Shown here piece by piece: positions 41,933 to 43,426 of a stretch of DNA of 64,000 nucleotides. The stretch covers positions 28,098-92,097 of the forward strand of contig BTXY01000003.1 in assembly GCA_036987155.1 (NCBI GenBank). Reading direction: 5' to 3'. The position numbers were made by a program, and so were the translations under genes. Position 1 is the stretch's first letter, and each line of letters starts with the position of its first letter. Below the pieces are notes generated by a model, which worked only from the letters and a program-made list of their open reading frames with translations, made no database searches and was not told where the DNA came from. Source of the DNA: Candidatus Microsyncoccus archaeolyticus. Lineage in GTDB: Bacteria; Patescibacteriota; Minisyncoccia; Minisyncoccales; Minisyncoccaceae.

Positions 41933-43409
41933 TTTGAGAGTTTGATCCTAGCTCAGGATGAACGCTGGCGATGTGGATCAGGCATGCAAGTCGAACGGTC
42001 ATGTATCGCAAGGTATATGATAGTGGCGAATGGGTTAGTAACACGTGGATATCAACCCCTTACTCAGGCATAACCTGGAGAAATCCAGGATAATTCCTGA
42101 TAGTCCGAGCAATCGGTAAAGGTTTTCCGGTAAGGGATGGGTCTGCGTCCTATCAGCTAGTTGGTAAGGTAAAGGCTTACCAAGGCTATGACGGGTAGGC
42201 GGAGTGAGAGCTTGTCCGCCAACAATGGCACTGAGACACGGGCCATACTCCTACGGGAGGCAGCAGTCGAGAATATTGCACAATGGGGGAAACCCTGATG
42301 CAGCGACATCGCGTGTGGGATGAAGATCTTCGGATTGTAAACTACTTTTCTATGGGAAGAATTTTTGACGGTACCATAGGAATAAGGGGTGACTAAACTC
42401 GTGCCAGCAGTAGCGGTAATACGAGTGCCCCAAGCGTTATCCGGATTAACTGGGCGTAAAGGGTCTGTAGGTGGTTTATTAAGTTCTTCGTTAAATCTCT
42501 AGGGCTTAACCTTAGAGCTGCGGGGAAAACTGATGAACTAGAGGATGTTAGGGGCTGATAGAACACTCGGTGGAGGGGTGAAATCCGTTGATATCGAGTG
42601 GAATACCAAAAGCGAAGGCAATCAGCTGGGACAGTCCTGACACTGATAGACGAAAGCGTGGGGATAGAAAAGGATTAGATACCCTTGTATTCCACGCCCT
42701 AAACGATGAACACTAGCTATTGTAAGTGTCGACCCTTGCAGTGGCGAAGCTAACGCGTTAAGTGTTCCGCCTGGGAAGTACGGCCGCAAGGCTAAAACTC
42801 AAAGGAATAGACGGGGACCTACACAAGCGGTGGATCACGTGGCTTAATTCGACAGTAAGCGAGGAACCTTACCAGGGCTTGACAGACTATTGAAGACACT
42901 TCGAAAGATGTGTTTACCCGCAAGGGACAGTAGTCCAGGTGCTGCATGGTTGTCGTCAGCAGGTGGCTTGAGTTGCTCCCTTAAATGGGGTAACCTGCGC
43001 AACCCTTGTCCTATGTTTCATGTGTCATAGGAGACTGCCTGGGACGACCAGGAGGAAGGTGAGGATGACGCCAAATCAGCATGGCCTTTTGATGCCCTGG
43101 GCTGCACACGTGATACAATGGAGCCGACAATGGGACGCTAAAGAGTAATCTGGAGCAAATCCTAACAAACGGCCCCTCAATACGGATTGAGGTCTGAAAC
43201 CCGACCTCATGAAGCCGGAATCGCTAGTAACCGCAGATCAGCCACGCTGCGGTGAATATGTCCCTGGGTCTTGTACTCACCGCCCGTCACGTCAGGCGAG
43301 TTGGGAATACCCGAAATTCCACATTAGTGGGCTTAAGGTAGGCTCAATAAGAAGGACGAAGTCGTAACAAGGCACGGGTAGCGGAAGCTGCTCGTGGATC
43401 AATTATTTT
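41933..43409 (+). rRNA. rrs: 16S ribosomal RNA (ends approximate; about 1.48 kb, no large insertion)
   Basis: GAGAGTTTGATCCTAGCTCAG at the 5' end. ACTCCTACGGGAGGCAGCAG, GTGCCAGCAGTAGCGGTAATAC, GGATTAGATACCC, CCGCCCGTCAC, and AAGTCGTAACAAGG...GGATCA at the 3' end. Confidence 0.95.
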
Positions 43410-43426
43410 ATTTTTAGTTTGTCGGC

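Follow-up and report, generated by a model that had tools for sequence, protein, structure and literature searches.

Can a bacterium give up the anti-Shine-Dalgarno (anti-SD) element of its own 16S rRNA, and how would its ribosomes then choose start codons? This question is raised by the 16S rRNA gene in a 64-kb stretch of contig BTXY01000003.1 of Candidatus Microsyncoccus archaeolyticus, which was analyzed over its whole length and is called the window here; all coordinates are window positions. The original prediction held that the 3′ tail of this 16S rRNA lacks the CCUCC core and that the surrounding genes lack Shine-Dalgarno (SD) motifs, and it proposed that initiation by default does not depend on SD, the rRNA element itself having been lost. 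Our analysis indicated that the anti-SD loss is real, functional-looking and lineage-wide, and that an mRNA hairpin in prfB, the gene for release factor 2 (RF2), is the part deserving follow-up.

The Rfam small-subunit rRNA model RF00177 matched a full-length 16S rRNA gene, the one copy in the window, at 41930–43409 on the plus strand, with 1387.3 bits over model positions 1–1533. At the 3′ end of this alignment, GGAUcACCUCCUUu of the model stands opposite GGAUCAAUUAUUUU of the window. Helix 45 (43373–43396), a 10-bp stem capped by a GGAA loop (CACGGGUAGC-GGAA-GCUGCUCGUG), is intact as had been predicted, and its outer stem CACGG/UCGUG is a lineage signature accompanying the anti-SD loss. The helix is followed by the conserved GAUCA (E. 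coli 1530–1534), which is likewise intact at 43397–43401; the earlier reading GGAUCA had counted the last helix G twice and was otherwise right. The next five positions, those of the anti-SD core (43402–43406), read AUUAU instead of CCUCC and continue with UUUAUUUUUAG, so that the window 3′ end reads GAUCA-AUUAUUUU. A degenerate tail, AUUAUUUUAUUUUUAG (43402–43417), the first 15 nt of which contain no C or G, thus replaces the usual CCUCCUUA. No CCTCC occurs between helix 45 and the next coding sequence, as claimed, and beyond that claim the motif was found neither anywhere in the 16S rRNA gene nor in 43397–44300, about 900 nt downstream. As far as a gene sequence can tell, the anti-SD core is truly lost, which confirms the observation.

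The leaders of the window genes were then considered, using the non-overlapping open reading frames (ORFs) of at least 70 aa that have ATG as the first start codon (n = 49). None of the 49 carried GGAG or GAGG within positions −20 to −1, and GGAG, GAGG or AGGA occurred there in 4% of them versus 20% of random coding 20-mers. Consistently, the mean duplex energy with ACCUCCUUA was −0.5 kcal/mol upstream of starts versus −2.6 kcal/mol in coding sequence, and G was strongly depleted across the 20 positions. The leaders had been described as free of GGAG and GAGG, which stands, and as composed of A and T only, which does not, given that some G and C occur. Examples on the plus strand are the leaders of pgk (10021–10040, ggatatcattaatca-ATG), rpsB (40091–40110) and infA (50587–50606), none with an SD motif. 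The gene names on which the prediction relied were borne out by Pfam and NCBIfam, which identified pgk, a recJ-like DHH protein, lepA, ftsZ, eno, gap, L25, S2, EF-Ts, IF1, S13, S11, L17, L13, murA, RRF, an M50/RseP-like protease and a class II aminoacyl-tRNA synthetase. The same pipeline found SD-like motifs in 61% of upstream regions versus 10% of coding sequence in a 50-kb E. coli region, and in 80% versus 13% in the equally AT-rich Staphylococcus phage K (~30% GC), demonstrating that it detects SD motifs where they exist. These two served as the positive controls, the anti-SD-bearing loci of the Candidate Phyla Radiation (CPR) being uninformative for this purpose. In the flanks of 16S loci lacking the anti-SD (412 genes), SD-like motifs were present in 11% of upstream regions versus 19% of coding sequence. 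Enrichment of SD motifs upstream of starts was thus found neither in the window, nor in these 412 genes, nor in relatives fetched through their RF2 homologues, as the prediction would have it.

The same loss was evident in relatives of the window organism. A helix-45 pattern that leaves the tail unspecified was scanned against one genome per GTDB species and gave 120 hits; the pattern was broad, and most hits came from Actinomycetota and Chloroflexota, which served as an unplanned control. All seven hits with the window-type outer helix-45 stem (CACGG/TCGT) lacked CCUCC, their tails reading TTTAATTT, ATTACATT, TTTATTTT, ATTATTTT, TTTATTTA, ATTAAACT and TTTTTTTT, whereas all 113 hits with other helix-45 variants read CCTCCT (Actinomycetota, Chloroflexota, Magasanikbacteria, a Saccharibacteria and others). 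Names among the seven include Paceibacterota (L086), Staskawiczbacteria (L114) and "Patescibacteria group", and their 16S genes are between 92% (L067, the 655-kb chromosome OZ246399) and 74% identical to that of the window, with L099 at 87%. When metagenomes were scanned with the exact helix 45 of the lineage, 120 contigs were recovered, 119 of them with a readable tail. CCUCC was missing from 115 of the 119 tails; four retained CCTCCTTT, and partly degraded tails such as ATTCCAAT and CTTCCATG also occurred. The nearest relative (L137), from a separate assembly, is 98.7% identical to the window over the preceding 300 nt and carries the near-identical tail ATTATTTTATTTAAAG. None of the 119 tails has G at positions 1–7, and U accounts for 92% at positions 2 and 3. 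The tails conserve a WUUA/U-rich, G-free pattern over 8 nt, behind which the relatives have a stretch rich in A and then the spacer motif UUGWCGAC, also conserved. RF2 homologues 66–94% identical to that of the window are named Paceibacterota or Pacebacteria. By 16S and RF2 similarity, rather than by a formal phylogeny, the window belongs to the Parcubacteria/Paceibacteria subgroup of the CPR, and comparison of the related tails indicates that the loss of CCUCC is lineage-wide, being shared by relatives down to ~74% 16S identity.

This loss is uncommon across bacteria, as the original prediction stated, and yet it is not new, since it has already been published for this group. Tsurumaki et al. 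(2022) detected an anti-SD motif in just 48% of Parcubacteria and noted that the lineages without it overlap the group lacking uL1 (PMC9297842), an association that does not strictly define them; the rplK-rplA-rplJ-rplL region lies outside the window, as do the loci for bS1, bS21 and Era. A 2024 PLoS One survey listed Campbellbacteria and Wolfebacteria GW2 as "SD-scarce organisms lacking CCUCC", with 2–5% SD genes (PMC10783764). Neither paper was found to describe the helix-45 signature that varies together with the loss, the consensus of WUU-rich tails, or three features taken up below, namely the context of the leaders, the signal for leaderless mRNAs and the hairpin in prfB.

Assemblies of the metagenome-assembled genome type often break or are mis-joined at rRNA genes, and with one copy in the window the tail could in principle stem from faulty assembly, from truncation of the gene or from a pseudogene, with CCUCC present in the real gene. 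Alternatively, an insertion or intron after GAUCA might split the 16S rRNA from a downstream exon carrying CCUCC. CPR 16S genes do carry insertions; in Patescibacteria H51-bin095_1 (L103, 2072–3008), helix 45 and GAUCA lie ~900 nt past the Rfam 16S end, and the group II intron D1–D4 match in that gap (2700–2776) resembles an insertion near the 16S 3′ end. Both explanations are confronted by the organization of the locus. The Rfam match is full length, and the two flanks of the gene, 41886–41928 and 43483–43529 on the plus strand, join in an RNA duplex of ~40 nt with an energy of −37.7 kcal/mol, compared with −19.9 ± 3.0 kcal/mol for shuffled trailers; the ACAACTCTAAGA motif of the 3′ strand is kept in the spacers of relatives. 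This is the usual pre-16S processing stem, and it places the mature 3′ end between 43401 and ~43480. The stem closes 80–130 nt past GAUCA, no CCTCC occurs before it or within 900 nt, and the next features are a protein gene, encoding a class I S-adenosylmethionine-dependent methyltransferase (43524–44096, plus strand; Pfam Methyltransf_23/11), and two tRNA genes, tRNA-Ile(GAU) and tRNA-Ala(UGC) (44087–44242, plus strand; ARAGORN and Rfam). The order tRNA-Thr, 16S, methyltransferase, tRNA-Ile, tRNA-Ala is repeated in the independent assemblies L067 and L099, and a methyltransferase likewise lies 3′ of the 16S in L137. The stem and the downstream gene order together effectively exclude both a hidden intron and a broken assembly. 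A misassembled 3′ end, which the original prediction had named as an objection to itself, is further contradicted by similar tails in 7/7 genomes and 115/119 contigs with the same helix 45, which makes 122 independent relatives without CCUCC, and by leaders without SD. We thus regard an artefactual 3′ end as exceedingly improbable and a split 16S gene as scarcely credible.

Two further explanations accept the tail as genuine. The 64-kb window leaves room for another rrs copy elsewhere in the genome, which would supply the anti-SD to heterogeneous ribosomes while the window copy is specialized. SD-like motifs in the leaders, however, are depleted and not merely unenriched; selection for SD by any fraction of the ribosomes is thus not apparent, and this explanation is very improbable. 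The other proposes that the U-rich tail is a replacement docking sequence for A-rich leaders, that is, a re-coded SD/anti-SD pair; tails are indeed U-rich and leaders A-rich, and the WUUA/U-rich, G-free pattern is kept in 119 relatives. Nevertheless, pairing of each tail with its own −20 to −1 leaders gave −1.50 kcal/mol, against −1.44 for shuffled leaders, −1.43 for swapped tails and −1.68 for the reversed tail (n = 459), energies too small to hold an mRNA. Given no specific pairing with leaders beyond the controls, the tail as a new docking sequence was rejected as highly unlikely.

Very probably, then, the anti-SD has been lost, the leaders are SD-poor, and start codons are selected independently of SD by mixed cues, as the tail and leader data support. 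Without an rRNA–mRNA duplex, 30S or 70S particles would most likely pick starts through a mixture of four cues. One would be provided by A/U-rich, G-poor, weakly structured leaders with A at −3 and U at −1. The window leaders are ~48% A and 36% U; among the 49 ORFs, A occupies −3 in 37 (p = 1.5e-4) and U occupies −1 in 32 (p = 3e-5), and the folding energy is −4.0 kcal/mol at starts versus −6.8 kcal/mol inside genes. Another cue may come from the many places where stop and start codons overlap or abut, through coupling or re-initiation. Of 60 same-strand neighbors, 23 overlap (six through ATGA, four by one base) and 16 more lie within 20 nt, an arrangement that favors coupling or re-initiation. 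Leaderless or near-leaderless mRNAs at some operon starts, with a −10 box 5–9 nt before ATG, could contribute as well. Among 350 genes from the window and its relatives with at least 50 nt of non-coding sequence upstream, TATAAT ended 5–9 nt before ATG in 22 exact cases, compared with ~1–12 in other 5-nt bins, and TAnAAT did so in 50; these are a minority of the 350. Examples of window genes with a −10-like box close to ATG are prfB (17401) and those starting at 29221 and 45715, and the whole suggests that some mRNAs are leaderless or nearly so. The fourth cue would be the interaction of the start codon with the initiator tRNA itself.

Several points weigh against this interpretation. The tail was read from DNA, which makes the mature 3′ end a predicted one, and the window covers 64 kb of a genome that might hold the second rrs copy discussed above. 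Each start was simply set at the first ATG in the longest ORF, which makes the position-specific context approximate. The weaker structure at starts was also seen in the SD-using controls and is not lineage-specific, and the putative leaderless signal amounts to a hexamer resembling a −10 box in a genome that is rich in AT. Finally, the anti-SD-bearing CPR set comprised 23 genes with a weak SD signal (22% versus 12%), so that the contrast with sister lineages is poorly established.

The loss of the anti-SD bears on one mRNA in particular. In E. coli prfB, an SD-like AGGGGG placed 3 nt ahead of CUU UGA C pairs with the anti-SD and thereby stimulates the +1 frameshift. In the window, prfB is a canonical frameshift cassette on the plus strand. 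Its ORF0 of 21 codons (17401–17466), preceded by a TATAAT box that ends 7 nt before the ATG, terminates in the classic site CUU UGA, with CUU UGA C at 17461–17467, and the RF2 body with its SPF motif continues in the +1 frame (17465–18478; Pfam PCRF and RF-1). An SD-like GAGGAC is present as well, with no CCUCC in the 16S rRNA for it to pair with. Instead, it forms one arm of a predicted mRNA hairpin, GUCCUCU-cauu-AGAGGAC (17440–17457), which ends 3 nt before CUU; the arms (17440–17446 and 17451–17457) are exact reverse complements around a 4-nt loop and form 7 bp with −9.9 kcal/mol. Both arms of the hairpin draw on codons that are very rare in this genome of 31% GC: CTC makes up 2.2% of Leu codons, GTC 4.9% of Val codons, CGG 0.3% of Arg codons, GAG 21% of Glu codons and GAC 24% of Asp codons. 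The slippery stop site and the distance of the purine-rich GAGGA element from CUU are thus the same as in E. coli, whereas the partner of this element is rRNA in E. coli and apparently an upstream UCCUC of the same mRNA in the window; in E. coli prfB itself, folding gave no local hairpin (z = 0.08).

RF2 homologues 66–89% identical to that of the window gave access to ten relatives. The UCCUC/GAGGA core was kept in all ten, with folding z of −2 to −7. Those fetched with longer flanks showed the same prfB-ftsE-ftsX-HIT-ftsZ order, and most of those with several genes in view had SD-poor leaders; from this synteny, the RF2 identity and the leaders, we infer that the RF2-bearing contigs come from organisms that probably lack the anti-SD. 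A Moranbacteria prfB (L259) carries UCCCGA-aacu-UCGGGA in the same register, amounting to three compensatory pair changes; counting this one, the hairpin is conserved in 11 relatives. In an alignment of 12 prfB sequences, 86.5% of cells pair, compared with 32–57% in slid controls, and both sides have changed at five of eight pairs. The observed covariation was reached by 0–3 of 500 shuffles on four of five measures and by 58 of 500 on the fifth, which scores further pair types. Within the close relatives alone the covariation was not significant, being reached by 61 of 500 shuffles, and it became convincing only with the addition of the Moranbacteria sequence. As a separate observation, prfB of Moranbacteria CG10 (L262–L264) is an uninterrupted 364-aa ORF without a frameshift site, and hence uninformative for the hairpin; its difference from Moranbacteria GWE2_35_2- (L259), which has both site and hairpin, indicates that the autoregulation was lost or gained within Moranbacteria.

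Huang, Cho and Chang (2018; PMC6321510) found that an artificial hairpin upstream of the shift site and adjacent to the ribosomal E site stimulates the +1 shift at CUUUGA in E. coli lysate, with ~60% of the stimulation that SD provides. Two recent surveys of prfB frameshift sites make no mention of Patescibacteria or of hairpins. We tentatively suggest, as a possibility on which we would not yet rely, that an mRNA-internal UCCUC/GAGGA helix has replaced the SD:anti-SD helix and so kept the autoregulatory frameshift of prfB after the anti-SD was lost. The anti-SD-like UCCUC arm would pair with the SD-like GAGGA to give a 5- to 8-bp hairpin that ends 2–4 nt before CUU UGA C, that is, where the SD:anti-SD helix stimulates the shift in E. 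coli. A weak point of this hypothesis is the scope of the comparison, which covers E. coli as its anti-SD-bearing contrast and otherwise contigs whose anti-SD status is presumed.

These results matter in several respects. That a large free-standing clade of bacteria has lost the anti-SD in nature shows the SD mechanism to be dispensable down to its rRNA element, beyond the signals in mRNAs. Annotation is affected as well, in that gene callers and ribosome-binding-site models that assume SD will misplace starts in these genomes. The lineage is also a natural experiment on the users of the anti-SD, namely prfB frameshifting, the binding of Era and RbfA, and 3′-end maturation. If functional, the prfB hairpin would be a natural mRNA helix standing in for the rRNA–mRNA helix in the exit cleft of the ribosome.

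The remainder of the rRNA transcription unit (41834–44270, plus strand) is compact, in the order promoter, 16S, methyltransferase, tRNA-Ile, tRNA-Ala and terminator. A promoter-like TTGACA-17-TAAGAT, a consensus match only (10/12 positions), lies at 41834–41862; a conserved hairpin with compensatory stem changes in relatives occupies the spacer between tail and processing stem (43427–43463), and a terminator-like hairpin with a T run (44245–44270) adjoins tRNA-Ala. The methyltransferase ORF lies within the unit with its ATG at the edge of the processing stem, and NCBIfam gave weak generic matches only. A homologue directly 3′ of the 16S was found at 42 of 106 loci without the anti-SD, 0 of 6 anti-SD-bearing CPR loci and 0 of 91 others; as the gene is restricted to a subclade, a tie to anti-SD loss as such was rejected. 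Rfam detected no 23S or 5S rRNA in the window, indicating that its 16S is not linked to the other rRNA genes; the 23S of L099 begins 1.2 kb past tRNA-Ala. Within the 16S itself, 42405–42423 reads GTGCCAGCAGTAGCGGTAA instead of the usual bacterial GTGCCAGCAGCCGCGGTAA, which is the 515F primer site and part of the 530-loop pseudoknot, and the partner strand of the 530 loop is altered too (UGACUAA for CGGCUAA); standard 515F primers are expected to mismatch there.

Elsewhere in the window, an RF1 homologue (38450–39187, minus strand) is just 245 aa long and matches prfA models from about position 104 on, so that it apparently lacks domain 1 at the N terminus; this domain cannot be encoded in the gap of 187 nt upstream, and tblastn matches in relatives start at about residues 92–119. 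A class A RNase P RNA (13033–13365, minus strand) scored 112 bits against a threshold of 100 with large parts of the model unaligned, and appears to be a reduced form. Two MreB paralogues lie 5 kb apart (56197–57234 and 62237–63313), and a bactofilin-like ORF (45097–45672) and ftsZ (22402–23661) were also identified. Also present are a protein with helix-turn-helix and SocA/Panacea antitoxin domains (2359–3141) and a TrwB/TraG-like coupling ATPase with a treble-clef zinc finger (8382–10013), which stands beside pgk in the relatives L244 and L249 too.

How does this system compare with other SD-poor ones? In the SD-blind translation of Bacteroidia and Verrucomicrobiales (Baez 2019, PMC6847099; Jha 2021, PMC7797042; Naeem 2024, PMC10798248), SD is likewise depleted below chance, and leaders are A-rich and weakly structured with A at −3. 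In most of those organisms, however, CCUCC remains intact, with bS21, bS18 and bS6 sequestering it, and still serves rpsU regulation, whereas in the window there is no intact anti-SD to sequester, the sequence itself being gone. Reduced endosymbionts and some Mollicutes without CCUCC (Lim 2012, PMC3457768; Amin 2018; Carsonella, Hodgkinia and Nasuia in Table 4 of PMC10783764) resemble the window organism in their small AT-rich genomes, lost anti-SD core and few SD genes. Their losses are scattered and terminal, whereas that of the window clade is deep and species-rich, spanning 16S identities down to ~74%. The closest match is provided by the published Parcubacteria without an anti-SD, which belong to the same lineage, lack CCUCC and have few SD genes (2–5% there, 0–4% here), and from which the window shows no essential difference.

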